Notes: generated by a model from the sequence alone, not told the origin. Shown: positions 2,551-18,317, numbered from the stretch's first letter. The stretch is 64,000 bases of DNA from Fibrobacteria bacterium (GCA_043745805.1 JAYTSD010000006.1:64001-128000); one strand, 5' to 3'. Numbers and translations are program-made.

Positions 2551-3879
2551 TTAGAAATTGAATGTCGGCATAAAGTATAGGAACCAACCGGGTTGACTTG
2601 AAAAAGCCTTATTGGTTATCTTAGCTGCCGGAAGCGCTTTAGCCATATCTCCAGGTAGGAATACGGCTGCACCTAAAACAATATTGGATTTGGGATAAAG
2701 ACCAACATGTAACTCTAAGTTAAATTCCTGACCGTATGGATCGTCAAGCCCAGTTGGGGCCGCTTGTGGAGTGAAATAATGATATTGCGGTTTAATCGTA
2801 ACTCGTGGATTACCTGTAGCATTGGGGAAAAGAGCAATGTCAGCATCCAAACGATAGTCAATCACACCGTATTTAGGATTGGTTATAAAATAATCCATCC
2901 AACCATAATAAGCGTGTGCGAAATAATAATTAGCTCTATACGATTTCAGGTCGGAATCGGTTGAGTCATCATCACCACTCATCATATCAACGCCAGCATT
3001 TACTTTGATAGGTCCATTAGCATAACCAATGCGTGTGGCTAATTGAAAAGCAGCGCTGCTTAAATTGTTGTTTTTAACATAGAGTTCGCCACCTTGCCAA
3101 ATAAACTCTTCTTCAAAAGTAATCACACTTACTTTCCCTGCTACACGTTCCCCATAATATTGTAAATCATAATTACTGGAAGTTACACCTGCATAGGTTG
3201 TTCCTAAGCGTGATTGGTCGTAAAATCCATAGACATCACCGGTAATGTCAGGTGTGATTTGATGAGTATAATAAAGACCACTTAAGAGCAATCTATCTTT
3301 GGTTATCACAGCGCTAGTATCTTTTACCAAATATGCAACACCTGTTAAGTTACCTGGGTCCAAATTCAAATTAAAAGATAAACCATCAAATGCTCGGGAG
3401 GTTGGGCTCCATTCTAGTGTGCTTAAGAAGCGACCTGCACCTAAAGACATTTTTTGGCGACCCATAACGGTTTTGAAAATACCTTCTTCAATTGAGAAAT
3501 AACCTTGTAATAAATCCACGCCTTTAGCATTACCAGTAGAGGCTGTGGCTGGGTTCGCAGCAGATGCTGCGGGAGTGGGCTCACTTCCGAAGTTACGTAC
3601 ATCTTGCATTTCCACTTTAACTTCGGTATTCATCGAAGGTGAAGCCAAAAAGCCTATACGCGAACGCATTTGAGTGCTTAAAAAAGGTTTATTAGGGAGA
3701 GTATCTCTTACATCCTTACTATCATATTCCGTACGTAAACGCACTTGACCATAGAAAGGCGGTTGAGGGGTATTATAAGGCGATTCAACGGGAGGCGCTG
3801 CCTGTAAAGTGAAGGTAGCAAGTAGTAACGCCGAAGCTACCTTTCCACAATGAGAAAAATTTTGAAAATAGCTTTTCAT
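2551..3879 (-). CDS. Alginate export family outer-membrane beta-barrel (porin of the nitrate uptake operon)
   Basis: Signal peptide; GQVRLRTE, GRQKMSLGAGRF and RAFDG motifs; terminal Phe; lies downstream of the nitrate ABC genes. Confidence 0.78.
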   Translation of the reverse strand: MKSYFQNFSHCGKVASALLLATFTLQAAPPVESPYNTPQPPFYGQVRLRTEYDSKDVRDTLPNKPFLSTQMRSRIGFLASPSMNTEVKVEMQDVRNFGSEPTPAASAANPATASTGNAKGVDLLQGYFSIEEGIFKTVMGRQKMSLGAGRFLSTLEWSPTSRAFDGLSFNLNLDPGNLTGVAYLVKDTSAVITKDRLLLSGLYYTHQITPDITGDVYGFYDQSRLGTTYAGVTSSNYDLQYYGERVAGKVSVITFEEEFIWQGGELYVKNNNLSSAAFQLATRIGYANGPIKVNAGVDMMSGDDDSTDSDLKSYRANYYFAHAYYGWMDYFITNPKYGVIDYRLDADIALFPNATGNPRVTIKPQYHYFTPQAAPTGLDDPYGQEFNLELHVGLYPKSNIVLGAAVFLPGDMAKALPAAKITNKAFSSQPGWFLYFMPTFNF

Positions 3880-3988
3880 GGCAAATCCTTTGCTGTGGGG
3901 CTTTCCCCGGTGTGTGTATTCTAAATGTTAACTATGGCCACTGCTTTGTGTGCCTGGTATTTTATGACAGTTTTATATGTCCCTAAAA

Positions 3989-4801
3989 CTATGCTGCTTG
4001 ATGCAAATGCGTGCTGATTAAGTAATGCAGGAGCTCCTTTCTTAAGCGTAGATAATCCGGACTTTCCATTACGCTTTCACGTGTACGTGGTCTTGGGATA
4101 TTTACATCCACAATTTCTGCTATGCGTGCTTTAGGCCCATTCGACATTAATACAATGCGGTCGGATAGAAAAACGGCTTCATCGACATCATGTGTGATCA
4201 TAATCACAGTTTTTTTGTTTTTTTCCCAAATAGCGGTTAATTCATCTTGCATAAATCCACGCGTTAAAGCATCGAGCGCGCCGAAGGGTTCATCCAAAAG
4301 CATCACCATGGGATCCGCCGCAAAGGCGCGTGCCAAGCCTACGCGCTGTTTCATACCGCCCGAAAGCTCTCCCGGTTTTTTTTGCGCATGGCCAGAAAGA
4401 TGCACCATATCCACATACTTGCGGGTTTCCTCTAGGCGGAAGGCGCGGTTTTTATCCGCATGCACACTATCCACGGAGGTTTTAACATTATCAAAAACAG
4501 TTAACCAAGGTAAAAGAGAATGAGATTGAAATACCACAGCTCTATCTAAGCCGGGACCCGTAACTTGCTTGTCATTTACGAGAACGGCTCCAGCGCTGGG
4601 CATAGAAAGGCCGGCTACCAAATTAAGCAAAGTACTTTTTCCACATCCTGAATGGCCGATGATGCTGATAAATTCGCCCTTAGCTATTTCCAAATTCACA
4701 TCTTCTAAGGCGTAGTAACGTGAAGCACCGCTTCCGAACCATTGGTGTACGCCTTGCAGGTGTACAAATTTTTGTTCTTTTTCCGAATTAATATTTTCCA
4801 T
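3989..4801 (-). CDS. nrtD: Nitrate ABC transporter ATP-binding subunit (NrtC/NrtD type)
   Basis: Walker A GHSGCGKST, LSGGMKQR, LLDEPFGALDALTR, ITHDVDEA; operon context. Confidence 0.88.
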   Translation of the reverse strand: MENINSEKEQKFVHLQGVHQWFGSGASRYYALEDVNLEIAKGEFISIIGHSGCGKSTLLNLVAGLSMPSAGAVLVNDKQVTGPGLDRAVVFQSHSLLPWLTVFDNVKTSVDSVHADKNRAFRLEETRKYVDMVHLSGHAQKKPGELSGGMKQRVGLARAFAADPMVMLLDEPFGALDALTRGFMQDELTAIWEKNKKTVIMITHDVDEAVFLSDRIVLMSNGPKARIAEIVDVNIPRPRTRESVMESPDYLRLRKELLHYLISTHLHQAA

Positions 4802-4809
4802 ATAATCTC

Positions 4810-5715
4810 CTACGCACTCATCTCAGTACCGAATAAACGAGCAATTCCCGCCATCAAACGATCAAGTGTTAGTCCAACCAGACCAACATATACCACCGAC
4901 ACTATAATATCGCTGAGGCGGGAACTATTCCAAGAATCCCAAATGAAAAATCCAATACCCACACCACCGGTTAACATTTCGGCAGCCACAATAGCGAGCC
5001 AAGCCATACCAATAGCGATGCGCAAGCCGGTGAATATATAAGGCGCAGCCGCAGGGAGAAGGATTTTGAAAAAATAACGAGTGCCTCGGATATTATAAAC
5101 CTTAGCTACATTGTCAAAGTCTTTAGGAATGCGACGTACACCCACCGAAGTATTGATTAATATGGGCCACACTGCGGTTATGAATATCACAAATATGGAA
5201 GAAGGGTTTGCTTGATTAAATATGGCTAAAGAAATAGGCAACCATGCCAATGGGGGTATCGTGCGTAATACTTGGAAAAAAGGATCGAAAGCCTTATAAG
5301 CCATGACTGATTTTCCTAAAATAATTCCAACAATTATGCCTACAAATGCGGCCAAGGAATAACCAATACCCACGCGGGCCAAAGAAGAAAGTAATTGCCA
5401 GCCCAAACCTTTATCATTGGCGCCATTATCAAAAAACGGATGGGCTATATAACCCCAACTTTCGCGAATAGTTTTAACCGGACCGGGTAAGGTTACCCCC
5501 TGGCTTTGGCTATAAATTTCCCAGAACAAACCAATAAAAAATAAAGCGACAAGAGGAAGAATGATGGTTTGCGCCTTTTCACGACGACGCAAGGTTTTTT
5601 CGTCTTCTTCTTTTTCTGCGACACTCTCAAAACCCACATTACTGGAGGATGGCATCGAAGAGGTTCGCTTCGATGTTTCAGAGACTAATTTTGTATCAGA
5701 TGAATTGAGTAACAT
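4810..5715 (-). CDS. nrtB: Nitrate ABC transporter permease
   Basis: PFFDNGANDKGLGWQLLSSL, LRTIPPLAWLP and WLAIVAAEML are typical of NrtB/NtrB. Confidence 0.9.
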   Translation of the reverse strand: MLLNSSDTKLVSETSKRTSSMPSSSNVGFESVAEKEEDEKTLRRREKAQTIILPLVALFFIGLFWEIYSQSQGVTLPGPVKTIRESWGYIAHPFFDNGANDKGLGWQLLSSLARVGIGYSLAAFVGIIVGIILGKSVMAYKAFDPFFQVLRTIPPLAWLPISLAIFNQANPSSIFVIFITAVWPILINTSVGVRRIPKDFDNVAKVYNIRGTRYFFKILLPAAAPYIFTGLRIAIGMAWLAIVAAEMLTGGVGIGFFIWDSWNSSRLSDIIVSVVYVGLVGLTLDRLMAGIARLFGTEMSA

Positions 5716-5732
5716 ATAGCTAACAGTCCTTT

Positions 5733-7043
5733 TTATTTTTTCGCGCCAGTTTTTTTGCCATCAATATTTTTAATTTTTAATTTGGCTAAGTAAGCTTCTG
5801 GATCCTTTGGATCAAAGGTGACACCATCAAAGAAGGTTTCGATACCGCGTGAATCGGATTCGGGAATCATGGCGCTTTGACCAATTTCTTTAGCGCATTC
5901 TTTCCAAATATCGGAGCGATTAACGGCATTCACAACCTTATCATAATCTACGCCATTAGGTAAAAATCCCCAGCGACGGGTTTCCGCTAAAAACCATTTA
6001 TCATGACTCTTGTAAGGAAAGGAAGCATGATCCATCCAATACTTCATGAATTCACCGGTCTTTTTAGGACGGCCATCGCCATAGTCAGTAATTCCTTTGT
6101 TACGGGGTAACAAATCTTCTATATTGCAATTAATCCAATTTTTTTGCGCTAAAATTCTGGACATTTCTTCTTTGTTTTCTGGCTTATCACACCAGATTTG
6201 CGCTTCCATAATGGCCTTCACTATAGCTTTGGTGGCAATGGGATGCGCATCCACCCAATCTTTACGCATGGTGAAAGATTTTTCTGGATGATCTTTCCAA
6301 ATCTCTTGGGTTTGTAAAGCGGTAAATCCAATTTTTTGATTAATTAATTGTTGATTCCAAGGTTCACCTACACAGAAGGCATCCATATTACCTACGCGCA
6401 TATTCGCTACCATTTGTGGAGGTGGAATTACAATAGTGGATACATCCAGATCAGGATCAATACCTGCGGCGGCTAACCAATAACGCACCCAATAATTATG
6501 GGTTCCCGTAGGAAAAGTCATGGCAATTTTAAGTGGTACTTTTTTCTTTTTGCCATTCTCAACATAAGGCTTAAGCGGCGAAGCATCTTTGGTGATCTTT
6601 AAATCCATGTACTTGGAAGCGACGGAGATAGCTTGATTATTATAATTCAAACGACATAATATATACATGGGAATGGGAACATTACCCTTGGTGATCAAGC
6701 CCAAGCTCATGGAATAGGGCATGGGGGTTAAAATATGTGCGCCATCAATGCCACCATTGCCAGAACCCAATTCTAAATTGTCACGCGTAGCACCCCACGA
6801 CGCTTGTTTTAAAACTTCCACATCGGGCATGCCATATTTAGCAAAAAGTTTTTTTTCTTTAGCTATGGCGAGTGGTGCAAAATCGGTAAGCGCGATATAC
6901 CCTAATTTAGCTTTAGTGGTTTCGGGCGTTTGAGCAACAACGGAGGTTGACAAAGAGGTTAATATTACCGTTACCCCTAATAAGGTTTTTAAAAAAGATT
7001 TAGACGGATAAATATATCGAGGTGTTTTTTTCCATAAAGACAT
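5733..7043 (-). CDS. nrtA: CmpA/NrtA family nitrate-binding periplasmic protein
   Basis: Signal peptide; LGYIALTDFAPL, MTFPTGTH, PPPQMVANM and FCVGEPWN; RBS CAGGAG. Confidence 0.9.
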   Translation of the reverse strand: MSLWKKTPRYIYPSKSFLKTLLGVTVILTSLSTSVVAQTPETTKAKLGYIALTDFAPLAIAKEKKLFAKYGMPDVEVLKQASWGATRDNLELGSGNGGIDGAHILTPMPYSMSLGLITKGNVPIPMYILCRLNYNNQAISVASKYMDLKITKDASPLKPYVENGKKKKVPLKIAMTFPTGTHNYWVRYWLAAAGIDPDLDVSTIVIPPPQMVANMRVGNMDAFCVGEPWNQQLINQKIGFTALQTQEIWKDHPEKSFTMRKDWVDAHPIATKAIVKAIMEAQIWCDKPENKEEMSRILAQKNWINCNIEDLLPRNKGITDYGDGRPKKTGEFMKYWMDHASFPYKSHDKWFLAETRRWGFLPNGVDYDKVVNAVNRSDIWKECAKEIGQSAMIPESDSRGIETFFDGVTFDPKDPEAYLAKLKIKNIDGKKTGAKK

Positions 7044-7081
7044 TTGGCATACTCCTGCTCAGACTTAAAAGATGGCATGTA

Positions 7082-7115
7082 CGACCAAAAGCCCGGACGG
7101 ACCGGAATCAGTTGG
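7082..7115 (-). promoter_or_regulatory. Conserved structured 5'-leader element, copy 1 (nrtA leader)
   Basis: Minus-strand CCAACTGATTCCGGTCCGTCCGGGCTTTTGGTCG, 30/34 identical to 14469-14502; lies between the sigma54 promoter and the RBS. Confidence 0.75.
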
Positions 7116-7147
7116 AAAGCGCTCAATTGTGAGCTATCCATGGTTAA

Positions 7148-7163
7148 AGCAAGCGATGTGCCA
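7148..7163 (-). promoter_or_regulatory. sigma54 -24/-12 promoter of the nrtABD operon
   Basis: Minus-strand TGGCACATCGCTTGCT matches TGGCAC-N5-TTGCW. Confidence 0.85.
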
Positions 7164-7383
7164 TTCTATTAAAAAGAATATTTTGCGGCGATTACGTTGT
7201 TTTATTATGACAGAAGATGGTGTGAAAAATAAAATGCCAATAAATGTCAAATTTTTTTGTCAAGACTCTACACTTATTCACACTTATTACAATTATTGTC
7301 AGTCAATAGTAAATGTCGACCTACAGGCCATATAAACAATGGCTTATAGGGCATGACAAAAAATAATTTATTATCAAATGAAT

Positions 7384-8289
7384 TTATTTGTGGTTTTGAA
7401 ATGGTGTAAATTCGGTTTTATGTCCGTCAAGCGTAAAATAATTTTTCTCATCTTTTATTAATACCGCCGACTTTATTCCTAAATCCACCATTTTAATAGG
7501 TGTTTCGCGATGACGATTTTTAAAGGCAGTTTTTAGGGCCGTCGTGCCAGAGGCTAAATCCATAATTTCCCAATTTTTAAAATAAGTTATAGCACCTTCG
7601 GCTTGTAAGCCTAGTGATCCTTTTACCAAAGGAATTTGCGTTCCCGTTGTTCCTGCAATGCGAACCTTAGAGCAGCTCATGGTTACAAAGCTATTCACCT
7701 TAATTTCCAAACTATCGTCCCATACAAATACTTCAATGGAATTCCAGCCACTCACTTCATGTTTCGCATTTTTCACGACATGCAATCGTCCAGTTGCCGC
7801 TCCAACTGTTGCTGCCACACCGCCACTATCCTTCGACACGTAGCGCGTAAGGTCCTTAGCATCGGCGGTAATATTCACCCATGCATTGGTGGTCCACAGG
7901 CTTCCCGCATCTCCGGGCATGGTTTGAATTTCCAATCCATCGGGCCAAACTTTATCTTTAATAATGTGATAGAGTAAGCCGGTATTTCCATTGGCCTTAT
8001 ATTGTAAGCGAGTGCGATAGCGTGTGTATTGAGTTTCCGTAGCAATGTAGCCAGTTACATTATTGTTAATCATTAATTGATTAGAGTCCGGCAAGGGTTT
8101 GAAGTTTATGGAGTCCTTACGGTTTGTGCTGCCAAAGGTATATAAGCCATCTAAATTTTTCCCATTAAAAACTTTAACCCAAGTGGGTTCTGCTTGACTG
8201 GTAGTATAATATCCGCTTGCTAAGAGGAAGAAAACAAAAAATGAAAGCATTTTTTTTGAACGAGAAGTAAAATTCATAAGGTCCTCCAT
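7384..8289 (-). CDS. Secreted DUF1080 / 3-keto-disaccharide hydrolase-like protein
   Basis: Signal peptide; WVKVFNGKNLDG, GNTGLLYH, GLEIQ and GSLGLQAEG...FKN motifs. Confidence 0.75.
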   Translation of the reverse strand: MEDLMNFTSRSKKMLSFFVFFLLASGYYTTSQAEPTWVKVFNGKNLDGLYTFGSTNRKDSINFKPLPDSNQLMINNNVTGYIATETQYTRYRTRLQYKANGNTGLLYHIIKDKVWPDGLEIQTMPGDAGSLWTTNAWVNITADAKDLTRYVSKDSGGVAATVGAATGRLHVVKNAKHEVSGWNSIEVFVWDDSLEIKVNSFVTMSCSKVRIAGTTGTQIPLVKGSLGLQAEGAITYFKNWEIMDLASGTTALKTAFKNRHRETPIKMVDLGIKSAVLIKDEKNYFTLDGHKTEFTPFQNHK

Positions 8290-8431
8290 ATTTTGTTATG
8301 CACCATATTTCCCCAAAATAATGGCAACCGGTAATTAGAGGTAAATGTAAAGCGAAGCGGAATAATTTTCTGGGCGATTTGCAAAAAAAGCTCAGGCAGT
8401 AGCATAAAAACGAAATTGTTTAGTAGGAATA

Positions 8432-9469
8432 TTAAGCTTTGTCTCCTCTATTCTCTAAAGCACTTTGGTATTCGCCTTCATGACAAATAGCAGTAAGGTT
8501 TAAATTTTCCACTTCTTTTTCAGTAACATGACCAAAACGCAACATGGTTTGCAAATACCATTTCGCATGCTTAGGATTGGGATAGGAGGCGCCTTCACCT
8601 GCAAAGCGTAAAAAATTTTGTGGGAAAATTTTGCGTTTTCCACCCGCTTCTAATTCACTATTCAAAGCGTTTTCTAAAAGACTTTGGGAGGTGTTTACAT
8701 AACGCTTTCCCGATAGCAGCGTAGCCGCTTCTTTATGGTTTTCTTTTTTTTGTAACCATTGCGCTGCCGAAAAAAGTGCGCGTAATACGGCAGCATGTGC
8801 TTCTTGATTTTGTTGTAACCAAAAATTTTTTAATCCTAAAACTTTTTCGCCACAAGGAGGAGCGCAATCTTCGCTAACACCTACGATAAATCCTAATTTT
8901 GAAATAGCTGCCCTTTGATTCCAAGGTTCTCCCGCACAAAATCCATCAATGGCTCCCGTGCGTAATTGCCCGACCATTTCTTGCGGAGGTACTACTTTTA
9001 AAACAATATTATCGCCAATTGCCAAACCCGCTTTTGCTAACCATATACGCCATAAATATTCATGTGTGCTGCGCGGAAATACAATCCCTAAGCGCAAAGG
9101 CTCGGAAGCCTTTTCATTTTGCAACCAATGGGCTAAGGATAAAGCATCACTCACTCCGGCATTCCATAAACGGTTGCTCAAAGTAATGGCATTACCATAT
9201 TGACTCAATGTATAAGCGTAACCGCAAGGTTCCGCAGGACCATGATGCCCCAAGCTTATTTGTAAAGGCAATGTGATAAGCATATGAGCGGCTTGAATAT
9301 CATCGTTTAATAAGCGCTGACAAATTTGTCCCCAATTTTGAAACTTGCAAAGCTCCACCGGGATATTTTCTTTTTCAAAAAATCCCAATTCTTTAGCAAT
9401 AACTAATGGGGCGCAGTCCGCAAGCGGAATGAAGCCGATACGAAGAATGGAGGTGGTGGTAAAATTCAT
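8432..9469 (-). CDS. Cytoplasmic NrtA-like nitrate sensor (NasS-like)
   Basis: LRIGFIPLADCAPLVIA, VPPQEMV and FCAGEPWN; no signal peptide; shorter than NrtA. Confidence 0.72.
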   Translation of the reverse strand: MNFTTTSILRIGFIPLADCAPLVIAKELGFFEKENIPVELCKFQNWGQICQRLLNDDIQAAHMLITLPLQISLGHHGPAEPCGYAYTLSQYGNAITLSNRLWNAGVSDALSLAHWLQNEKASEPLRLGIVFPRSTHEYLWRIWLAKAGLAIGDNIVLKVVPPQEMVGQLRTGAIDGFCAGEPWNQRAAISKLGFIVGVSEDCAPPCGEKVLGLKNFWLQQNQEAHAAVLRALFSAAQWLQKKENHKEAATLLSGKRYVNTSQSLLENALNSELEAGGKRKIFPQNFLRFAGEGASYPNPKHAKWYLQTMLRFGHVTEKEVENLNLTAICHEGEYQSALENRGDKA

Positions 9470-9614
9470 ATAAGCTTTAAGTGAGAATTAAAGTAATTCT
9501 TGAACATCAAAATTGTGTAGCTTTTTTTTTAAAACACCGGTAAAATCGTGAAAAGGTTTAAAAAAATCGTTTGTTTAAAAACAAGTGGAAGTATTCAATA
9601 ATCTGGAGCATAAA

Positions 9615-11246
9615 ATGAGTTCTAATCAACAACCTCGCCAAAATATTTTTGCTTCTGCTTGGTCGCAAATACGGCAGGGAAATGCAACTTTGCTCGTGAT
9701 TTTGTCCATGTCCGGTTTCGTTTTGTTTTGGATATTTTCTTCACAAACATTGAATACTGTCAAGGTGAATGGTGAAATGTATAAGAATATTGTGCGCGGT
9801 AAGGATTTGATTGCCGATATTCTCCCTCCTCCTGAATATATACTCGAATCGTATTTGGTGGTTTTACAATTATGTGATGAAACGGATCCAGCAAAGCTGC
9901 AACAACTTTTCGATAAAAGTAAATCCTTGAAAAAAGATTTTTTAGATAGGCATGCTTATTGGGATGGTGATTTGCCCGCAAACGAAATGCGCACGACATT
10001 GTTAGAAACGTCATATGCACCAGCAATGGAGTTTTATAAAATTCGCGATGAGCAATTTTTACCGCTCATTCAAGCTGGAAAAAAAGCAGAAGCTAAGGCC
10101 TTAGCCGCAGGATCCATGAAAGTGGTATATGAAGCGCATCGTCAGGCAATTGATAAAGTGGTGGCCTTGTCCACCGAGCATAATTCGGCCTATGAAGCCT
10201 CAGCTAATGGCTTAATCAAAAAGCGTACACTCATGTTAACATTACTCGGGTTTTTTATTTTGGTGGTAAATGTATTTGGTTTTGTAACTATGCGTAAGGT
10301 TATTGCGCAACAATTGAAAGAATTGTTAGCCGCACTTAATGCTTTGGGTGAAGGCAATCTTACTTATAAATTAAATATGGTCGAAGGATCAGAGTTTGGT
10401 AAAATTGGAAAATCATTAAATCGCGGTATGGAAAAAGTGGCGGATACGATTAAAACTATTCGCCATAATGCGGATTTATTGTCGGGTTATGCACAAAATA
10501 TGTTGAAAGAAAATTTAGAAATTGGAAGCTCCATTCAAAAAATCTCCAGCCAAGCCAAGCATGTGTCGGACAATGCGGAACAAGTGGGACGAGACTCACA
10601 AACATTAGCCGCCGGTACTGAAGAAATGACGGCGAGTATTAAAGAAATTTCTCGTAATACGTCTTCTGCCTCTGAAGTGGTATCGGGCATGGTTTCCAAA
10701 TTACAATTAACGGATACCGGTGTGACCAAGCTCAGAGAAAGTAGTGAACAAATTGGGCAATTCATAACGGAAATTACCGCGATAGCCGAGCAAACCAATT
10801 TATTGGCTTTGAATGCCACCATTGAAGCAGCACGCGCAGGTGAGTCCGGTAAAGGCTTTGCTGTGGTGGCGAGTGAAGTAAAAGAATTGGCTAAAGCCAC
10901 GGCTAAGGCTTCGGATGAAATTATTCGTCGTATAACAGTTATTCAAAGTGATACTCAAGGTGCTGCCAATAATATTCGCGATATTCGTTTGATTGTTGGC
11001 AATGTGCATGATTACCAAAGTTCCATAGCAAGTGCCGTGGAAGAGCAAAGTGTCACGACTTCGGAAATGAGTGGTAACATTAATGCTTCGGCCCAAAATA
11101 GTATTGAAATTGCTAATACGGTAACAGCGCTTGCTGAATCGATGGGTGATACTGCCAAAGGTGCCGAAAAAAATAGTGAAGCGGCTAAAAAATTAACCGC
11201 CATGGCTACTGAATTAAAAACTTTAGTCGGCCAGTTCCAATGTTGA
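9615..11246 (+). CDS. Methyl-accepting chemotaxis protein (2 TM, helical periplasmic sensor, HAMP)
   Basis: [37 protein letters not shown] signalling hairpin; GGAG RBS before ATG 9615. Confidence 0.93.
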
Positions 11247-11251
11247 TTTTT

Positions 11252-12955
11252 TTAGCGTAATAATAACCACAGCTCAATACTTGCTGCGAGTGTCGTTAGC
11301 CCAGCAAGTAATTTCCATACCAGCAAGGGATTGCGTTCGAGTAGAGGACGGAATACCGGCGCATGGACAACTTCTTCCTGTTTTTCCAAATGAAATTGTA
11401 ATTCCGATACCGACTCATATCTTTTTTTAGGATCCGCTTCCGTAGCTTTTTGTAATGCCGCTTCCAACCAAAAAGGGGTTTCGGGACGAAAGCGTGAAGG
11501 CGGAATCCATCGAATAAAACGTGGGGAAGAAAAGGGTTCGATTTCCCCATACGGATATTTGCGGGTTAATAATTCATAAAGGGTAACTCCTAAAGCATAA
11601 ATATCCGACTGTACCGAAGTTCTATCTCCACGAAAAACCTCGGGAGCCATATAGCTTGGGGTTCCCGGGGCTGAGAAAGCTAATCCCTCGCCGGTAATGG
11701 GTTGCAAGCCATCCACTTGAATAATTCCCAAATCCATAATTTTAACTTTGCCATTACGATCGATAAAAATATTGTCGGGTTTAATATCGCGATGCACAAT
11801 ATCCTTGCTATGCAAAACATGTAAACCTTTACAAATTTGCAAACCAATTTGTACTACTTCATCCGCCGAAAAATAATGCCCACGCTTGATACGCTGGCGT
11901 AAAGTTTCGCCTTGATAAAACGGCATTGCATAATATAAACAGGATCGTCGGCCCGAAGTAATAGGTAACACGGGTATGACATATTCACTATAAATACGTT
12001 TGCCTACCCATTCCTCGCGGAGAAATCGATCGATAAACACTTTATCATCGCGAAAACGGGGATGCGGAAATTTGAGCGCCACACTTTCGCCGGTACGGGT
12101 ATCTTCCGCTTGGTAGATGGAGGCCATATAGCCCTCATGCACGGTGCGTAAAATGCGGAAATCATCTAGTATTTGCCCAGGTAACACTGTGGTTGCGAAA
12201 GGTAAATCCGAAGCTTCGCTTTGCAAATCGGCTTCTTGATGTTCTGGAAGGCTTTCAATATGTACGACTTGGGTGGTGATATTATCTTGAGAGCCGAAGC
12301 TAAAGGCGGCATGTACTAATTGATCCGCGGCAGTTTGGGGATCTATTTCTCCTAAGGCAATGGAAAGTAGTTTTTCATCGGGTAGGCATTTGTTTAAACC
12401 ATCTGTGCATAGCACAAAAATATCGCCGATTTTAAGTTCGTCTTGAAAAAAATCAGCATGAATATGACTGTCTAAACCAATTGCACGCGAAACCACATTA
12501 CGCATTTCGGGATGATCCCAAACATGATCTTGAGTTAATAATTTTATTTGTTTATTACGAATTAAATAGATGCGACTATCGCCTACATGCGAGACAAAAT
12601 AACGATGGCCCTTAATGATTAAAGCCGAAAATGTAGTGGCGGCACCCCCGCGACTTTGTTCAGCTTTTTCCGGTTGATAAATACTTTGATTGAGTTGGGT
12701 TAAAATTTGTTCAACGCATTTTTGAATACTCCATGTGTCAGGAGTACTATAATAATCAGCAAGAAAATTTTTTACCGATTTCTCGGCAGCAGCTCTGCCA
12801 CCATGGCCAATACCCACACCATCGGCTACCACAACGGCCACACCCTTTGATTGCAGGGCATCGCCTTCGGGTGTTACGCAACCATAAAAATCTTCATTGC
12901 CTTGTCGACGCCCTTGAGAGGAATGGACACCAAGAGCGACTTTTAATTTTTTCAA
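11252..12955 (-). CDS. Bifunctional PP2C-type phosphatase / Ser-Thr protein kinase with C-terminal membrane anchor
   Basis: PP2C motifs NED, VADG, HVGDSR, LCTDG and DNIT; kinase motifs VALK, HRDIKPDN, DLG and GTPSYMAPE. TTG start overlaps the MFS stop (TTGA). Confidence 0.9.
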   Translation of the reverse strand: MKKLKVALGVHSSQGRRQGNEDFYGCVTPEGDALQSKGVAVVVADGVGIGHGGRAAAEKSVKNFLADYYSTPDTWSIQKCVEQILTQLNQSIYQPEKAEQSRGGAATTFSALIIKGHRYFVSHVGDSRIYLIRNKQIKLLTQDHVWDHPEMRNVVSRAIGLDSHIHADFFQDELKIGDIFVLCTDGLNKCLPDEKLLSIALGEIDPQTAADQLVHAAFSFGSQDNITTQVVHIESLPEHQEADLQSEASDLPFATTVLPGQILDDFRILRTVHEGYMASIYQAEDTRTGESVALKFPHPRFRDDKVFIDRFLREEWVGKRIYSEYVIPVLPITSGRRSCLYYAMPFYQGETLRQRIKRGHYFSADEVVQIGLQICKGLHVLHSKDIVHRDIKPDNIFIDRNGKVKIMDLGIIQVDGLQPITGEGLAFSAPGTPSYMAPEVFRGDRTSVQSDIYALGVTLYELLTRKYPYGEIEPFSSPRFIRWIPPSRFRPETPFWLEAALQKATEADPKKRYESVSELQFHLEKQEEVVHAPVFRPLLERNPLLVWKLLAGLTTLAASIELWLLLR

Positions 12956-14166
12956 ACGCGTGCTTTTGTCACTAAGGGTGAACCCCATGTCGTGCGCCAG
13001 CGTTTTTTAACACTCATTAAACCAATGAAAGCACAAATTCCCATGCCCGCAAAAATAATAAGTCCCATACGATAATCACCGGTATATTGTTTACAAAATC
13101 CTAATGAAGTGGCTAAATAAAATCCGCCCATGCCACCAGCCATTCCGACCAGCCCAGTAAGTACGCCAATTTCACGACGAAAACGTTGGGGGATTAATTG
13201 AAATACGGCACCATTACCCATGCCAAGGCAAGTCATGCACAAAACAAAGAGTACCACAGAAATCCAAAGTATATGTGGAGCAAACGCAATTGTAAGCAAA
13301 CAAGCTGCTACACATAAATAAAGTGTTTGTAAAGATTTTATTCCACCGATTTTATCCGCTAGGTTACCTCCAAAAGGACGGGACATTGATCCCGCAAAAA
13401 CACAAGCCGCGGTTAAATAACCAGCCGTAACTGGCGAGATACCATATTGACTATTGAAATAAATCACTAAGCTCGAAGCCAATCCCACAAAGCCACCAAA
13501 AGTTACGAGATAGAAGAACATAAACCACCAAGCATCCTGGTCCCGTAAAACAGCTAAGTATTGCGAAAGTTTTTTAGGAGGAGGCGCATCAGGCGCATCT
13601 TTAGCGAGTATGGTAAAAATGATGAAAGTTATAGAGAGCGGAATTAAGGCTATTCCAAAAACGGCATTCCAACCATAATGATTGGCTAATAGCGGTGCAA
13701 ATAAAGCAGAAAATACCGTACCCGAATTTCCCGCTCCCGCAATACCCATTGCCAAACCTTGCGATTCGGGAGGATACCAACGTGAGGCCAGCGGCAAAGC
13801 AACGGCAAAGGCAGTCCCTGCTACACCTAATAAGATTCCCATGAAATACATTTCCTGCAAATTATGCAAATGAAATATCCAAGCCCATAATAAGCCAGCA
13901 ATAACTACAACTTGTGTGAGCATGCCGGTTTTTTTAGCGCCAATTTTATCCACGAAAATTCCTATGAAGAGACGCATAATAGCCCCTGCTAATACGGGGA
14001 CTGCGACCATTAAACCTTTTTGCGAAGGGGATAAGCCTAAATCGCGCGCTATGTGCACGCCTAGAGGGCCGAGTAAAACCCAAACCATAAAACTCATGTC
14101 AAAATAAAGAAATGCAGAAAATAATGTTGCCGGATGGCCCGCTTTCATAAAGCTTTTGATATTCAC
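12952..14166 (-). CDS. NarK/NasA family nitrate/nitrite MFS transporter
   Basis: FLYFDMSFMVW, GIAGAGNSG, FYLVTFGGFVG and GMGNGAVFQ nitrate-signature-like motifs. Confidence 0.92.
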   Translation of the reverse strand: MNIKSFMKAGHPATLFSAFLYFDMSFMVWVLLGPLGVHIARDLGLSPSQKGLMVAVPVLAGAIMRLFIGIFVDKIGAKKTGMLTQVVVIAGLLWAWIFHLHNLQEMYFMGILLGVAGTAFAVALPLASRWYPPESQGLAMGIAGAGNSGTVFSALFAPLLANHYGWNAVFGIALIPLSITFIIFTILAKDAPDAPPPKKLSQYLAVLRDQDAWWFMFFYLVTFGGFVGLASSLVIYFNSQYGISPVTAGYLTAACVFAGSMSRPFGGNLADKIGGIKSLQTLYLCVAACLLTIAFAPHILWISVVLFVLCMTCLGMGNGAVFQLIPQRFRREIGVLTGLVGMAGGMGGFYLATSLGFCKQYTGDYRMGLIIFAGMGICAFIGLMSVKKRWRTTWGSPLVTKARV

Positions 14167-14204
14167 GATTCAACCCCTAAAATTCATTTGTTGCTGTTTG
14201 AGAA

Positions 14205-14220
14205 AGCAAACCTTAGGCCA
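14205..14220 (-). promoter_or_regulatory. sigma54 -24/-12 promoter of the MFS/kinase operon
   Basis: Minus-strand TGGCCTAAGGTTTGCT (GG-N10-GC spacing). Confidence 0.75.
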
Positions 14221-14429
14221 TTAATTTTTCTTCTGCTTTACAAATGTCTAAATAACCTGAATAAATTGGCTTAAATTGATAATTATCGTTTAAAATTGGC
14301 CATTGTAAAAAATACCATTAGTTCTGGTAGGGTAATTTATTGTCATTTGTTGTTAAACAATAAAAGACAATTGTCGACAATCAAAGTTAATTAAAGACCA
14401 CAAACCCATGATACACGTGGTTTACAGAG

Positions 14430-14445
14430 TGGTACAAAATTTGCG
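14430..14445 (+). promoter_or_regulatory. sigma54 -24/-12 promoter of the nirA operon
   Basis: TGGTACAAAATTTGCG (GG-N10-GC spacing), 87 nt before ATG 14533. Confidence 0.72.
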
Positions 14446-14468
14446 TTACCTAATTTTGGTTTTACAAC

Positions 14469-14502
14469 CCAACCGATTCCGGTCTGCCCGGGCTTTTGGA
14501 CG
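14469..14502 (+). promoter_or_regulatory. Conserved structured 5'-leader element, copy 2 (nirA leader)
   Basis: CCAACCGATTCCGGTCTGCCCGGGCTTTTGGACG, 30/34 identical to the reverse complement of 7082-7115. Confidence 0.75.
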
Positions 14503-14532
14503 ACGACTCAATGCTTATTCAGGAGTACGCCC

Positions 14533-16404
14533 ATGGCAACGGAAAACACAACTCAAACATTTGTTTCGCCAATATCCCAAATGCATGCAAGCACGGCCAA
14601 TCAAGGCTCTCCAGTTATTGCAGGAAAAGATTTTTCGTCTGAACAAAAAGAATATCTCGATGGTTTTTTTAGGGGTTTGCTATCGACATCCCTAAATGTG
14701 AACGGGGTAAATCGCAATTCAACCACTGCCATTACGACTGCTACTATTCCTTATGGTGAAGCCGAAGCCATTGGTTATAAGGCGCAATTGGCTTGGACGG
14801 ATGCAGGTAAAAAATTAAGTAAAGAAGAACAAATAAAATTTGCAGCCAATCCTCTTGATAGCTGGGGAAAGATTCGCGCCTTATCAGTAGAAGGCCAGTT
14901 GCCGCAAGGGCCGGACATTTTCCATTTCAAATATCACGGTCTCTTCAATGTTAGCCCTGCGCAAGAAAGTATGATGTGTCGTATGCGGCTTCCAGGCGGT
15001 GTACTTAAATCCTATCAGCTCGAAGGCATTGCTAATGCTGCCGAAAATTTTGGTGGAGGCTATGCGCATATTACTACGCGCGCAAATTTTCAAATTCGTG
15101 AAATACCCGCAACCGGTATGGAACCTTTGCTTACAACCTTACATGAAGTAGGTATTGTGCCACGGGGATCGGGTGCCGATAATATTCGCAATGTAACCGG
15201 CAATCCCACGGCAGGCATTGATAAGCAAGAGTTTTATGATGTTTTGCCTTTATGCAAAGAATTGCATCATTACATTCTCAATCATCGTGAAATGTACGGT
15301 TTACCGCGCAAGTTCAATGTGGCTTTTGATGGGGGCAATTCCATTGCCGCCTTAGAAGAGACTAATGATATTGGTTTTAAAGCCGTAAAGGTATTCTCGG
15401 GGGCGGGTTCGGGACATGAGTTTGCAACAGGCGTTTATTTTCGCGTCGCGTTAGGCGGCATTACCGGCCACAAAGATTTTGCCCGTGACACAGGTCTTTT
15501 ATTAAAACCGGAAGAATGTTTGCCAGTTACAGTGGCGATGATCAAAGTATTCATTGCCAATGGTGATAGAGGACAACGCGGCAAGGCGCGCTTAAAATAT
15601 GTATTGGATAAATGGGGCTTTGCCAAATTTTTAGAGGAAACACAGAAGTTACTCCCCTTTCCCTTAAATTATTTAGCCGCCGAAAAATGTGAATTTGCTC
15701 CGGCCATTGATAAACTCGCGCATGTAGGCATACATACCCAAAAACAAAAGGGACTTAGCTATATTGGGATTCATACGCCGGTGGGTCGCTTGAGCGTTAA
15801 ACAAATGCGCGACCTCGCAAGCATTGCGCAACAATTTGGTTCGGGAACTATTCGCTTAACGGTTTGGCAGAATTTAATCCTTTCGGACATTTCAAATAGC
15901 CAAGTGCCACAAGCTCTACAGGCATTGGAAGCAGCGGGCTTTGCATATCAACCGAATATGGTGCTTGCAGGCTTAGTCTCTTGCACGGGTGCCGAAGGTT
16001 GCAAGTTTGGTATGGCTGCCACCAAAAGCACCGCAGTGGTTCTGGCGGAATATTTAAATGGTAAGGTGGATTTGGATCAACCTGTGAATATTCATTTAAC
16101 CGGTTGTCCGCATTCTTGCGCACAACATTATATCGGAGATATTGGTCTATTAGCTACTTCTGCGGAAGTGAACGGAGAAAAAGTAGGTGCCTTCCATATT
16201 TATGTGGGCGGCGGTTATGCCGCTGAAAGAGGTATCGCACGACAAATTATGAAAGCGATTCCTATTACCACACTTCCGCAAACTTTAGAATTTGTTTTGA
16301 AAACCTATTTACAAAAACGCAAAGGCTCCGAAAGTTTTGCGGCATTTACTCAACAACTCGAAGAAACAGATTTGCTCACCATGTTCACACTAGCGCAAGC
16401 ATAA
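14533..16404 (+). CDS. nirA: Siroheme/4Fe-4S nitrite reductase, NirA family
   Basis: HITTRANFQIR, GADNIRN, LPRKFN; ligand motifs CTGAEGC and GCPHSC; nitrate cluster context. Confidence 0.88.
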   Translation: MATENTTQTFVSPISQMHASTANQGSPVIAGKDFSSEQKEYLDGFFRGLLSTSLNVNGVNRNSTTAITTATIPYGEAEAIGYKAQLAWTDAGKKLSKEEQIKFAANPLDSWGKIRALSVEGQLPQGPDIFHFKYHGLFNVSPAQESMMCRMRLPGGVLKSYQLEGIANAAENFGGGYAHITTRANFQIREIPATGMEPLLTTLHEVGIVPRGSGADNIRNVTGNPTAGIDKQEFYDVLPLCKELHHYILNHREMYGLPRKFNVAFDGGNSIAALEETNDIGFKAVKVFSGAGSGHEFATGVYFRVALGGITGHKDFARDTGLLLKPEECLPVTVAMIKVFIANGDRGQRGKARLKYVLDKWGFAKFLEETQKLLPFPLNYLAAEKCEFAPAIDKLAHVGIHTQKQKGLSYIGIHTPVGRLSVKQMRDLASIAQQFGSGTIRLTVWQNLILSDISNSQVPQALQALEAAGFAYQPNMVLAGLVSCTGAEGCKFGMAATKSTAVVLAEYLNGKVDLDQPVNIHLTGCPHSCAQHYIGDIGLLATSAEVNGEKVGAFHIYVGGGYAAERGIARQIMKAIPITTLPQTLEFVLKTYLQKRKGSESFAAFTQQLEETDLLTMFTLAQA

Positions 16405-16424
16405 ATTTTATTTCAAGGATAGCG

Positions 16425-18317
16425 ATGCAATCACCTATTATTCCGGAATCCGCACCCTTTAATTTAGAACAACGTAGTTGGCTGAATGGATTTTTGGCGG
16501 GTTTACAAAATGTGCAAAACCTCAATGGTAATGCAGGATTTTCCTCACAAGAGAGTAGTATCGGACAGGGTACGAGTACCTCGAATGTTATGCGTCAACC
16601 TTTGCTTATTTTATTTGGTTCCCAAAGTGGAAATACTGAGGCTTTGGCTAATGTTATGGCCGATAAAATCAAAGCGGCCTCCTTTGCCGGTATTGCGGGT
16701 GGTCAAGCCTGGGATATTCGCATATTAGGCATGGAAAAATTCAAAGATATTATTTGGGAAAAAGAAAAAGCCATTTTGTTAATGTCAAGCACTTGGGGTG
16801 ACGGGGATATGCCCGATAATGCCATTGATTTTTGGAATTATATGGGTGGAACCGATTTGCCGAATTTAACCGCCTTACATTTTGCAGTATTAGGCTTGGG
16901 CGATAAAAACTATGCACGCTATTGCCAAGCCGGTAAAGAATGGGATAAGCGCTGGGCCGATATAGGGGCGCAACGCTTATTGCCTCTTACCGAATGCGAT
17001 ACCGATTATGAAGCTACTGCGGATACTTGGATTTTACAAGTTACCCAAGCTTTAGAGCCTTTATATGCGATGGGAATTAATACTGATAAAAAAACTAATA
17101 GTACAGCTACTTCCATTGCTTCGACATCAGCTACGGTATCCTTAAAAGGGGAGTCCGCTAAATCAGAAAGCGCGGAAATAAAGTTCGATAAAAAAAATCC
17201 TTTTCCGGCTCCCTTACTCGAGAATCATCCATTAAATGCCAAAGGTTCGGGTAAAGATACCCGTCACATTGCACTTTCCTTAATGGGTAGTGGATTAGAA
17301 TACAAAGTAGGCGATGCCTTAGGAGTTTGTCCCAATAACTGTTATGACTTAACCGATAAAATAATTATCGCACTCAATTGTATGGGTAATGAAAAGGTTA
17401 CACTAAACTCTGGTGAGTCGCTGACTTTAAGAGCCGCCTTGCTCTCCAAATTAGATTTACAAAAAACCTCCTTACCCTTAATTCATGGTTTAGCTAATTG
17501 CTCAGAAAATTCCTCGGAAAAAAAATCTTTGTCGGAATTATTAGGTTCTCAGGATTCCGAAAAAGCAGCGCAATTTTTACAAGGCAAAGATGTACTAAAT
17601 GTATTACAACTTTTCCCTCACACTAAATTGGATCCACAGTTATTAATTTCGGCTCTTGGCAAACTTGGGCCAAGGCTTTATTCAATTTCTTCTTCGCCCA
17701 AAGAAAATATTGATGAAGTGACTTTGACTATTGGCGTGGTGCGTAATATGGTGGAAAATCGTTTGCGCCGAGGTGTATGCTCTACGTTTTTGGCCGAACG
17801 CTTACCCTTAGGCATGACGGCTCCGGTATTTGTGCATAAATCCACTACTTTTGGTTTGCCAACTGAAAATGGTAAACCCATTATTATGGTGGGACCAGGA
17901 ACAGGCATAGCCCCCTTCCGTGCTTTCTTGCAAGAGAGACGTATCACGGGAGATACGGGTAAAAACTGGTTATTCTTTGGTGATCAAAAACGCAATTATG
18001 ATTTCTTATACGCCGAAGAATGTATTGCTTGGCAAGAAGAAGGTTTTTTAAATGAATTGGATTTGGCTTTCTCGCGCGATCAAGAAGAAAAAATTTATGT
18101 ACAAAGTTTAATGCTGCAAAAGTCCAAACAACTTTGGAATTGGTTAGAAGAGGGGGCTTACTTTTATGTCTGTGGCGATGCCAAGCGCATGGCTAAAGAT
18201 GTCGATCACGCTTTGCAAAGCGTGATTAGCAAAGAGGGCGGATTTTCGGAAGACAAAGCTAAAGAATATTTATCTAAGATGAAAGAACAAAAACGCTATC
18301 AGCGCGATGTTTATTAA
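16425..18317 (+). CDS. CysJ-like diflavin NADPH reductase (flavodoxin + FAD/NADPH domains)
   Basis: GSQSGNTE, STWGDGD, RLYSISS, MVGPGTGIAPFR, YVCGDAKRM and RYQRDVY. Confidence 0.9.
   Translation: MQSPIIPESAPFNLEQRSWLNGFLAGLQNVQNLNGNAGFSSQESSIGQGTSTSNVMRQPLLILFGSQSGNTEALANVMADKIKAASFAGIAGGQAWDIRILGMEKFKDIIWEKEKAILLMSSTWGDGDMPDNAIDFWNYMGGTDLPNLTALHFAVLGLGDKNYARYCQAGKEWDKRWADIGAQRLLPLTECDTDYEATADTWILQVTQALEPLYAMGINTDKKTNSTATSIASTSATVSLKGESAKSESAEIKFDKKNPFPAPLLENHPLNAKGSGKDTRHIALSLMGSGLEYKVGDALGVCPNNCYDLTDKIIIALNCMGNEKVTLNSGESLTLRAALLSKLDLQKTSLPLIHGLANCSENSSEKKSLSELLGSQDSEKAAQFLQGKDVLNVLQLFPHTKLDPQLLISALGKLGPRLYSISSSPKENIDEVTLTIGVVRNMVENRLRRGVCSTFLAERLPLGMTAPVFVHKSTTFGLPTENGKPIIMVGPGTGIAPFRAFLQERRITGDTGKNWLFFGDQKRNYDFLYAEECIAWQEEGFLNELDLAFSRDQEEKIYVQSLMLQKSKQLWNWLEEGAYFYVCGDAKRMAKDVDHALQSVISKEGGFSEDKAKEYLSKMKEQKRYQRDVY

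Follow-up and report, generated by a model that had tools for sequence, protein, structure and literature searches.

A lineage-specific leader RNA motif of the nitrate/nitrite assimilation regulon in Fibrobacterota

To our knowledge, the known cases of RNA-level, pathway-specific control of bacterial nitrate assimilation act via ANTAR proteins (NasR and NasT). Small translational riboswitches, of which preQ1-I, guanidine-II/III and SAM-II are examples, are also among the described systems closest to the locus considered here. As described in PMC3369931, ANTAR targets comprise two neighbouring stem-loops with hexanucleotide loops carrying A1 and G4, and bioRxiv 10.1101/660928 reports that actinobacterial ANTAR-target RNAs overlap start sites and repress translation. 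Here we describe a short leader element that occurs twice in a 64-kb stretch of Fibrobacterota DNA (the window) and recurs in related genomes as a lineage-specific motif, confined to leaders of the genes with which one group of Fibrobacterota assimilates nitrate and nitrite.

An earlier note, made from the sequence of the window, had proposed that a 34-nt structured leader shared by the nrtA and nirA operons is a new cis-regulatory RNA. The nrtA-leader copy (7115..7082, minus strand) and the nirA-leader copy (14469..14502, plus strand) both match its consensus with 0 mismatches, against 0.00 matches in 100 dinucleotide-preserving shuffles, and they are identical at 30 of 34 positions, the differences (positions 6, 17, 19 and 32) all falling outside the proposed stems. 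The 31-nt element is GC-rich, as had been claimed, at 61–65% G+C compared with 40% for the genome, and the two leaders do end alike, with CAGGAGTATGCCAAATG at 7057..7041 (minus) and CAGGAGTACGCCCATG at 14520..14535 (plus). Each copy precedes the start codon and follows a sigma54-type promoter, which stands 33 nt (nrtA) or 24 nt (nirA) upstream of the CCAAC box; rpoN is found in the same genome. The nrtA copy reads as box CCAAC, a 5-nt joiner, the hairpin UCCGG-UCCGU-CCGGG and then CUUUUGG. Scans of the 3.95-Mb genome with a 25-nt core pattern (up to 3 mismatches) and with a covariance model (E<=10; 150 of ~800 first-look candidates scored) returned only these two copies, so the element is not scattered at unrelated loci. 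The leader of about 35 nt behind the third promoter, that of the MFS gene, carries no copy, as the note had remarked and in line with the covariance model giving no third genome match.

Table 1. Coordinates of the leader elements, promoters, start regions and genes in the window
Feature	Position	Strand	Basis
nrtA-leader element	7085..7115	-	covariance model 52.2 bits; centroid fold P1 plus P2
nirA-leader element	14469..14499	+	covariance model 46.4 bits; centroid fold P1 plus P2
sigma54-type promoter, nrtA operon, TGGCAC-N5-TTGC	7149..7163	-	read directly from sequence
sigma54-type promoter, nirA operon, TGGTAC-N5-TTGC	14430..14444	+	read directly; regex match
sigma54-like promoter, MFS nitrate transporter gene, TGGCCT-N5-TTGC	14206..14220	-	
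nrtA translation-initiation region (GGAG 7055-7052, AUG 7043-7041)	7032..7057	-	RNAfold
nirA translation-initiation region (GGAG, AUG 14533-14535, first codons)	14520..14547	+	RNAfold
nrtA operon, regulated	2551..7043	-	Pfam
nrtA	5733-7043	-	Pfam
permease, nrtA operon	4810-5715	-	Pfam
ATPase, nrtA operon	3989-4801	-	Pfam
porin, Alginate_exp family, nrtA operon	2551-3879	-	Pfam
nirA operon, regulated	14533..22252	+	Pfam
nirA	14533-16404	+	Pfam
CysJ-like flavoprotein, nirA operon	16425-18317	+	Pfam
Fer4-DmsC fusion, nirA operon	18321-20048	+	Pfam
assimilatory nitrate reductase, nirA operon	20015-22252	+	Pfam
cytoplasmic NrtA-like (NasS-like) protein	8432..9469	-	Pfam NMT1_2

From Fibrobacterota metagenome-assembled genomes (MAGs) and metagenomes we collected 60 distinct copies, selected for a sigma54 promoter upstream, and every identifiable downstream gene in this set is nirA, nrtA, a nitrate MFS transporter, an FNT transporter, a porin or a nitrate-reductase subunit. 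The window together with 17 relatives' loci contributes 30 copies, of which 11 precede nrtA, 10 nirA, 4 a nitrate MFS transporter gene and one each an FNT, a porin and a Fer4-DmsC gene, with two lacking an assignment; TGGYAY-N5-TTGC lies upstream of 29 of them and TGGCCC-N5-TTGC upstream of the thirtieth. The core pattern occurs in 23 of 31 genomes of one family (f1) plus the window's own and in 0 of 264 genomes of other families, and the reversed pattern, used as a control, has 0 matches in f1. The covariance model finds the element in 25 of the 31 f1 genomes (25 of the 27 with a nirA orthologue and none of the 4 without one), counts that are non-independent because all genomes are MAGs and related to each other; diverged copies are present in the sister families f4 and f2. 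MFS genes of relatives do carry the element. The window's own MFS gene and a nirA gene of f1 genome G008 have sigma54 promoters that lack it, a point against the reading favoured below.

The fold proposed earlier, an outer CCAA/UUGG stem (P1) around an inner UCCGG/CCGGG stem (P2), was recovered as the centroid of the isolated 37-nt RNAs, which have no extra stability relative to shuffles (z = -0.5 and -0.3). Across the copies, the motif consists of a box CCAAYYG, either a joiner of 5–6 nt or a structured insert of 63–130 nt, the hairpin CCGG-UCYGN-CCGG and YUUUGG. The CCAAY box is present in 60 of 60 copies even though it was absent from every search pattern, standing 5–6 nt before the core in 39 and before the insert in 21. 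The 34-nt form in the window is the motif at its smallest; relatives extend it with the structured insert, whose stems show compensatory changes in 17 of 42 predicted pairs. In the sister families P1 becomes GCAA/UUGC, CCCA/UGGG or CCAG/UUGG, and P2 becomes GCGG/CCGU.

Covariation inside the core is modest. At (-1,14), 49 of 60 copies have a canonical or G-U pair, and five pair types are seen there (permutation p = 0.004, uncorrected for relatedness), and a model-fitted alignment has double changes in 4 pairs compared with 1.4 in shuffles, with a covariation score that a control slid by -1 equals. The P2 stem and loop are the most conserved part and the 5' joiner is variable; P2 is nearly invariant, with uncompensated changes (C-A in 11 of 60 copies, A-G in 1 of 60), an apparent invariance of the core that is in large part a product of finding copies by pattern. 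Covarying inserts at one fixed site, complementary outer stems in the sister families and G-U pairs together argue for a function at the RNA level. High primary-sequence conservation that includes the stems, little covariation and the partly palindromic CCGG-N5-CCGG would also suit a DNA operator bound by a transcription factor downstream of the sigma54 promoter. We regard such an operator as highly improbable: the element is always oriented along transcription and always lies within the leader at a variable distance (17–148 nt) from the -12 element, inserts of 63–130 nt with covarying stems split the box from the core, P1 changes in the sister families stay complementary, both G-U and U-G occur at (-1,14), and no transcription factor gene is linked to the element-bearing loci.

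When either window leader is folded in full, the element's 3' half is predicted to prefer the ribosome-binding region over the hairpin. At nrtA, the lowest-energy RNAfold prediction (-30.0 and -34.4 kcal/mol) joins the start region to 7100-7079, with a duplex energy in the best 0.2% relative to 400 control start regions of the same genome, and the nirA start region likewise pairs with the element (RNAfold, -22.9 kcal/mol; best 0.5% relative to 400 controls). Across copies, the 3' half scored against its own start region falls in the best 5% of controls in 21 of 57 and in the best 10% in 28 of 57. Consensus folding of the nrtA long forms gives a helix, UUGGACAUAC/GUAUGCCCAA, that is invariant in 16 of 16 and encloses a covarying hairpin, and one nirA leader type gives GGGCC.UUGG/CCAA.GGCCC, again the start-region helix. 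Tested over whole leaders, duplex formation did not reach significance (median z = -0.15; 3 of 60 below -2), and complementarity to the start region is weak for MFS-type, second nirA type and FNT leaders. The second nirA type has its hairpin and start-codon helix adjacent rather than mutually exclusive, so a simple either/or switch misfits some operons, and the constant core is found with three different downstream arrangements across operons.

Such pairing could in principle be a fixed cis structure that needs no dedicated sensor and holds the translation rate low, stabilizes the mRNA or ties its folding to transcription, in which case the need to match several different start regions would explain its conservation. 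In agreement with a structure of this kind, both window leaders have their start site masked in the predicted default fold, regulation could come from the sigma54 promoter by itself, and we identified no trans-acting factor. It nevertheless seems improbable to us: the core sequence, loop included, is constant before at least four unrelated genes in six genera of 40–66% G+C, which is hard to explain without a common reader, and different parts of the core pair with start regions in different operons. A transcriptional attenuator, in which P2 and the U run form an intrinsic terminator relieved by an antiterminator, has the precedent of proteobacterial nas leaders that act by attenuation, as PMC3369931 relates, and the nrtA copy passes a loose terminator scan (a 5-pair stem followed by CTTTTGGT). 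We still judge it very unlikely, given that the nirA copy fails the same scan, the stem has just 5 pairs, the U run is down to three U (CCUUUGG) in 29 of 60 copies and itself supplies the 3' side of either P1 or the start-site helix, and an ANTAR protein was not found in f1.

As for known RNA families, the window gave 0 matches at gathering score to any Rfam 15 family, narK and NMT1 included, with none on the element at E<=10, and in 18 relatives' loci the sole row of Rfam 15 at E<=1 was an unrelated rydB match. The only nitrogen-related sub-threshold row is the narK RNA motif (RF03032; 13.7 bits where the gathering score is 43.2; E = 5), like our element a candidate cis-regulatory RNA and named for a nitrate/nitrite transporter gene; we rejected it as the identity of the element, the row lying on the promoter (7162-7119), and it is absent from the nirA leader and the 18 relatives' loci. 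The ANTAR domain (PF03861) occurs in 38 of 296 genomes of the phylum, the four loci examined encoding GAF-ANTAR proteins, and in 0 of 32 f1 genomes, including the window's own at 99.2% completeness. The earlier note had remarked that twin hexaloops are missing, and the sole conserved hairpin indeed has a 5-nt loop, UCYGN; an extra hairpin in the nrtA leader, GCUCA-CAAU-UGAGC, lacks G at loop position 4 and is unconserved in relatives. The pentaloop, the single hairpin and the PF03861 count in f1 together rule out a NasR/NasT target. A NasS-NasT sensor, in which leader read-through requires both NasS and its ANTAR response-regulator partner, was also set aside: the NasS-like gene is present, whereas a NasT partner (by PF03861, in the same 32 genomes) was not found. 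The NasS-like protein, which among solved structures is closest to the C-terminal regulatory domains of NrtC/CmpC, probably does not serve as the reader of the RNA; its gene travels with clusters that hold nrtABC, and no NasS-like or NrtA gene was found (E<=1e-20) in two element-bearing genomes, G023 (86% complete) and G021 (unpublished; 95% complete). The proposal of a new cis-regulatory leader RNA is supported by every check run, with no Rfam match, copies confined to nitrate/nitrite leaders and some pairing evidence at the RNA level.

A regulon with sigma54 promoters and a conserved leader in which no ANTAR protein was found therefore points to a different reader, either a protein or the RNA itself. 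The leader RNA probably gates translation of the nitrate/nitrite assimilation operons, and our best reading, offered tentatively and at slightly under even chances, is a translational leader switch read by a trans-acting factor. The transcript would start at the sigma54 promoter, which, judging from other bacteria, would bring in the nitrogen-limitation signal. The module may then fold on itself, with P1 around P2, or it may use its 3' half and the adjoining downstream bases to pair with the Shine-Dalgarno/AUG of the next gene; since the start-region fold is the more stable of the two in both window leaders, their translation is predicted to be off by default. In the presence of nitrate or nitrite, the trans-acting factor would recognize the hairpin, shift the balance and open the start site. 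It is possible, though somewhat short of an even bet, that this reader is an RNA-binding protein encoded outside the cluster, for which we found no candidate. A trans-acting small RNA pairing with the hairpin loop and stem appears exceedingly improbable. The stems are conserved in sequence, and an insert hairpin of the long nrtA forms carries ACGGA(CC), which complements the P2 loop UCCGU, so that the loop can be engaged by RNA; against a small RNA, the window's genome holds no second complementary site of at least 10 nt besides the element's own antisense, and the 8–9-nt matches are scattered, with no RNA-gene context seen.

We slightly favour an RNA-binding protein over direct small-molecule binding, the alternative in which the P1-joiner-P2 module is itself a small riboswitch for nitrate, nitrite or a nitrogen-status signal. 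Once stabilized by its ligand, P1 would draw UUGG and the adjacent bases away from the start region, switching translation on. This rather unlikely arrangement would fit a single pathway with several operons per genome, a constant core on varied downstream platforms, a P1 3' strand common to the start-site-masking helix, a structured insert of variable length at one junction, the lack of a regulator gene common to all clusters or of any ANTAR protein found in f1, and the presence of the element in the two genomes where the NasS-like gene was not found. Conversely, the module is just 31 nt, covariation is modest, the distribution is very narrow, and a variable joiner that tolerates a 100-nt insert beside a highly conserved P2 stem and loop is more in keeping with a hairpin that a protein or another RNA recognizes than with a ligand pocket in the internal loop. 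The only precedent we know of for RNA binding of small anions is fluoride. A full-text phrase search, matched only by a plant review, turned up no natural riboswitch reported for nitrate or nitrite, and that the 31-nt module is the putative aptamer of the first natural riboswitch for these inorganic nitrogen oxyanions strikes us as quite unlikely.

Whether the reader is a protein or the RNA, it would constitute a new nitrate/nitrite-sensing mechanism. A nitrate/nitrite riboswitch would respond to the substrate itself, expose the start sites of the uptake and reduction operons, and take the place of the protein-based NasR/NasST sensors in this lineage. At 31–37 nt, the element is short enough for direct in vitro work, an advantage given that it comes from uncultured Fibrobacterota of sediment and soil, and it provides a compact marker of nitrate-assimilation operons in these MAGs.

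Like the NasR-nasF and NasS-NasT leaders, the element belongs to the leader RNA that separates the promoter from the first nitrate/nitrite assimilation gene, and it would add a pathway-specific layer of control after initiation of the kind described in PMC3369931. As in NasS-NasT, a cytoplasmic NrtA-like homologue of the sensor is present in most clusters here (PMC3369931, PMC3795266). ANTAR-target leaders have an intrinsic terminator whose 5' base overlaps the second hairpin; ours show no convincing terminator, the loose scan flagging the nrtA copy but not the nirA copy, and the predicted target is the ribosome-binding region. The actinobacterial ANTAR-target RNAs, as portrayed in bioRxiv 10.1101/660928, resemble it as short structured start-site RNAs through which a recruited factor affects translation, whereas they are dual-hairpin substrates, and both fold and protein family differ here. 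Our element differs from small translational riboswitches in having no Rfam match and in combining varying junction bases with a conserved hairpin, but it shares with them a size of ~30–35 nt, a place just upstream of the Shine-Dalgarno sequence, variable platforms on a constant core and a P1 3' strand that doubles as part of the start-site-masking helix.

Among the genes identified downstream, no copy of the conserved leader element (a CCAAC box, a joiner and a hairpin core) was found before anything other than nitrate or nitrite uptake and reduction genes. In the window, both 34-nt copies lie where the earlier note had placed them and match its consensus exactly, against zero matches in shuffles of the window; as it had also described, four of the 34 positions are not the same in both, every difference falling outside the proposed stems, and each has a sigma54-type promoter upstream and a similar Shine-Dalgarno/AUG block downstream. 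The third promoter, that of the MFS gene, is indeed sigma54-like and opens a short leader that lacks the element. Nor are copies scattered as a generic repeat would be, since a genome scan found none besides the window's two in 3.95 Mb: a 25-nt core pattern allowing up to three mismatches returned these two sites only, and so did a covariance model at E<=10 (150 of about 800 first-look candidates scored). The same genome encodes a single rpoN and gives roughly 15 strong hits to the sigma54-activator family. Four public sequencing runs, all DNA and all from one study, cover window positions 6900-14700, and no RNA run is listed for that interval.

Features of the window and of related loci, with coordinates and strand
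Feature	Position	Strand	Remark
Element, nrtA leader	7115..7082	minus	exact consensus match
Element, nirA leader	14469..14502	plus	exact consensus match
Sigma54-type promoter of nrtA copy	7163..7149	minus	TGGCAC-N5-TTGC
Sigma54-type promoter of nirA copy	14430..14444	plus	TGGTAC-N5-TTGC
Sigma54-like promoter of MFS gene	14220..14206	minus	short leader without element
Operon under minus-strand copy: nrtA, permease, ATPase, porin	7043..2551	minus	Pfam
Operon under plus-strand copy: nirA, CysJ-like flavoprotein, Fer4-DmsC fusion, assimilatory nitrate reductase	14533..22252	plus	Pfam
PP2C phosphatase/Ser-Thr kinase fusion	11252-12988	minus	
MFS nitrate transporter	12952-14166	minus	
Extended nrtA frames, genus g3	L086:8120-9811, L091:7144-8739, L084:8364-9998, L082:6431-8092		
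Metagenome contigs with an unrelated conserved stretch	L107-L109, L114, L116, L118, L120, L122, L123, L125 and others		

Between the two operons lie, by Pfam, a NasS-like (cytoplasmic NrtA-like) gene, a chemoreceptor, a PP2C-Ser/Thr-kinase fusion and an MFS transporter. The fusion gene overlaps the end of the MFS gene by 37 nt and the pair recurs in relatives of two other genera (loci L076 and L079), an arrangement that suggests phosphorylation control of the nitrate transporter. The methyl-accepting chemotaxis protein (9585-11246, plus strand), whose gene is divergent from the NasS-like gene, has an N-terminal sensor region, some 230 residues long, without a Pfam assignment and could be a chemoreceptor for nitrate. 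A 211-residue protein encoded immediately after the nrt-porin operon (1804-2439, minus strand) gives a weak match to chlorite dismutase (21.7 bits, below the Pfam cut-off of 25). In relatives of genus g3, which are GC-rich, the nrtA frame opens at a conserved GGAGUAUGCCCAAUG and its NMT1_2 domain does not begin until residue 130-165, compared with residue 39 in the window NrtA; the Pro/Arg/Gly-rich extension, with its conserved PQRTPEAALPSNRGKAFP stretch, could be a true N-terminal extension or additional leader RNA.

Across public data, the element follows the window's Fibrobacterota family (f1). Sixteen of 19 contigs with the 21-nt core are labelled as Fibrobacterota MAGs, and the other three (Phycisphaerae, Xanthobacteraceae and Rhodospirillaceae), which have no upstream box, were taken as chance. 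Among 296 phylum genomes searched, the core (at most one mismatch) is present in 23 of 31 f1 genomes plus the window's own and in none of the 264 genomes from other families, and a reversed-pattern control gave 0 matches in f1. The covariance model places the element in 25 of the 31 and NirA orthologues (E<1e-150) occur in 27 (both counts include the unpublished genome G021); the element is found in 25 of the 27 genomes with nirA and in none of the four without, counts that are not independent because every genome is a MAG and the organisms are related. In one exception, G029, nirA is cut by a contig end. In the other, G008, the nirA orthologue (L204:3150-3600, minus strand; 49% identity) follows a sigma54-type promoter and a roughly 45-nt leader from which the element is absent, as it is from the leader of the window's MFS gene, which makes the element an optional layer on such promoters.

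We assembled 60 distinct copies, for which a sigma54 promoter within 260 nt upstream was a selection criterion. For 30 of them (the window and 17 long loci), 28 next genes were assigned: nrtA (11), nirA (10), MFS nitrate transporter (4), and FNT, porin and Fer4-DmsC (one each); TGGYAY-N5-TTGC lies upstream of 29 and TGGCCC-N5-TTGC upstream of the 30th. Diverged copies in the sister family f4 precede nirA, nrtA and Fer4-DmsC in clusters of like make-up. The metagenome scan returned 77 stretches, 22 with a sigma54 promoter and 55 without, and an unrelated repeated sequence among the 55 was set aside. An unrelated conserved stretch containing CCGGTCTGCCCGAGCCTTTGG then GATGGAAACGGATGCAA recurs in about 25 metagenome contigs, with neither a CCAAC box nor nitrate genes in the flanks shown and with a sigma54-type match in two loci only, about 260 nt upstream; this stretch may be another conserved non-coding element.

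The collection shows how the element is built. Conservation statistics for the core are inflated because copies were found by pattern; the CCAAY box, which lay outside every search pattern, is present in 60 of 60. It sits 5-6 nt before the core in 39 copies and 63-130 nt before it in 21, all checked ones of which precede nrtA or porin genes. An RNAalifold consensus of 16 long nrtA leaders folds the insert into a multi-stem domain with at least one compensatory change in 17 of 42 predicted pairs, so the window's 34-nt form is the minimal version of a larger motif. Free variation is seen in the joiner (YYGNNN), at the last loop base and at positions 13-14 and 16. Because MAFFT did not put the gap that separates 5-nt from 6-nt joiners at an internal position, 19 gap-free copies were used to build the model.

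Evidence for pairing within the element is modest. Core position 14 forms a canonical or G-U pair with the base preceding the core in 49 of 60 copies, compared with 43 expected, through five pair types (U-G, C-G, U-A, A-U and G-U; permutation p = 0.004, a statistic that ignores relatedness). In 48 copies the outermost pair of the inner stem P2 (CCGG/CCGG) is C-G; the remainder are uncompensated, with C-A in 11 and A-G in one. In a model-fitted alignment of 48 distinct rows, 92.0% of pairing cells pair versus 89.5% in shuffles and double changes occur in 4 pairs versus 1.4, with a covariation score that is equalled by a control slid by -1; isolated hairpins are not more stable than shuffled sequence. 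The clearest signal comes from the sister families: in f4 the outer stem P1 (CCAA/UUGG) becomes GCAA/UUGC, CCCA/UGGG or CCAG/UUGG, one P2 is GCGG/CCGU around the loop UCCGG, and in f2 UUGC...GCAA flanks CGG-UCCGC-CCG. In the window leaders (at 7140-7113, minus strand, and 14456-14476, plus strand), short upstream segments, UGGA and UUGGUU respectively, are predicted to pair with the CCAAC box, which would be a third alternative pairing. A DNA operator site, the reading in which the conserved sequence acts as DNA, is very improbable because of the fixed orientation, the variable promoter distance, the structured inserts and the G-U pairs.

A second set of predicted pairings involves the start region. 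In the lowest-energy fold of both window leaders, the 3' half of the element pairs with the stretch that spans the Shine-Dalgarno sequence and the first codons (7100-7079 with 7052-7032 in the nrtA leader, and likewise in the nirA leader), duplexes that rank in the best 0.2% (nrtA) and 0.5% (nirA) when compared with 400 start regions from that genome. Of 57 copies with an assigned start, by context in GC-rich relatives, 21 rank within the top 5% of controls and 28 within the top 10%. This start-region-restricted test was adopted in place of a whole-leader duplex test, which was not significant against shuffled downstream sequence. The effect is strong in nrtA leaders of genera g3 and g4 and in one nirA leader type, and weak for MFS, FNT and a second nirA type. 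In consensus folds, which agree with this picture, UUGGACAUAC pairs with GUAUGCCCAA in the long nrtA leaders, invariant in 16 of 16 around a covarying hairpin; GGGCC.UUGG pairs with CCAA.GGCCC in the first nirA type; and the second nirA type keeps the P1-P2 hairpin with an adjoining GCCAU/AUGGC across the start codon. What these predictions share would be masking of the start site by sequence at, or adjoining, the element's 3' edge. Geometry varies among operons, so a strict either/or switch does not fit them all; that the element is simply a fixed structure we consider improbable. Transcriptional attenuation, in which the element would act as a terminator, is more doubtful still: a loose terminator scan is passed by one window copy and failed by the other, 29 of 60 copies have no more than three U, and as a terminator the element is weak.

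As the reader of the element we tentatively propose an RNA-binding protein. The NasS-like protein (8432-9469, minus strand), an obvious candidate at first, is unlikely to be that reader: among solved structures it is closest to the C-terminal regulatory domains of the NrtC/CmpC ATPases of cyanobacteria (E about 5e-53), and it may, by this homology, be a split-off transporter regulatory subunit rather than a NasS-type gene regulator. The window's own ABC ATPase (3989-4801) has no such C-terminal domain. The NasS-like query detects NasS-like and NrtA genes alike and the genomes it matches are the same for both, so the NasS-like protein occurs only where NrtA-type genes do. In G023 and G021 the element precedes nirA-to-nasA operons and a search at E<=1e-20 turned up neither a NasS-like nor an NrtA gene, an absence not proven because the genomes are 86% and 95% complete. 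Long open frames around f4 NasS-like genes were dismissed as G+C artefacts, not fusions.

The clusters compared share no other regulator gene. This lack of a linked regulator, together with a constant core on varied platforms, would suit a riboswitch that binds a small molecule directly, but the invariant hairpin stem and loop and the variable, insert-tolerant joiner fit protein or RNA recognition somewhat better than a ligand pocket, and we regard a riboswitch as rather unlikely. Recognition by a small RNA is the least credible reading, as the window's genome holds no long complement to the core elsewhere.

No Rfam family matches the element, in line with the novelty that the earlier note had suggested: nothing in the window reaches gathering score, long-form relatives match nothing relevant, and a sub-threshold narK row sits on the promoter and was taken as chance. 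Searches of full-text literature turned up work on ANTAR, no description of the element, which supplementary motif tables could still list, and no natural nitrate or nitrite riboswitch; the main text of a 2017 motif catalogue (PMC5737381), as far as it was available, is without the words narK, nitrate and nitrite. ANTAR proteins elsewhere in the phylum (those examined, L170-L175) are GAF-ANTAR proteins of about 230-240 residues, and four examined loci lie beside unrelated genes (MTHFR or aspartate decarboxylase), not nitrate genes. ANTAR substrates are described, in the accessible part of PMC3369931, as dual hairpins whose hexaloops carry A1 and G4, whereas the element is not of that type; ANTAR domains occur in 38 of 296 phylum genomes and, in the same profile search, in 0 of 32 f1 genomes, so an ANTAR substrate is ruled out and the earlier exclusion of NasT/NasR targets stands. 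We rate the element as belonging with the known leader-RNA control of nas operons, as a new variant; if the RNA itself binds nitrate or nitrite, it would be categorically new.
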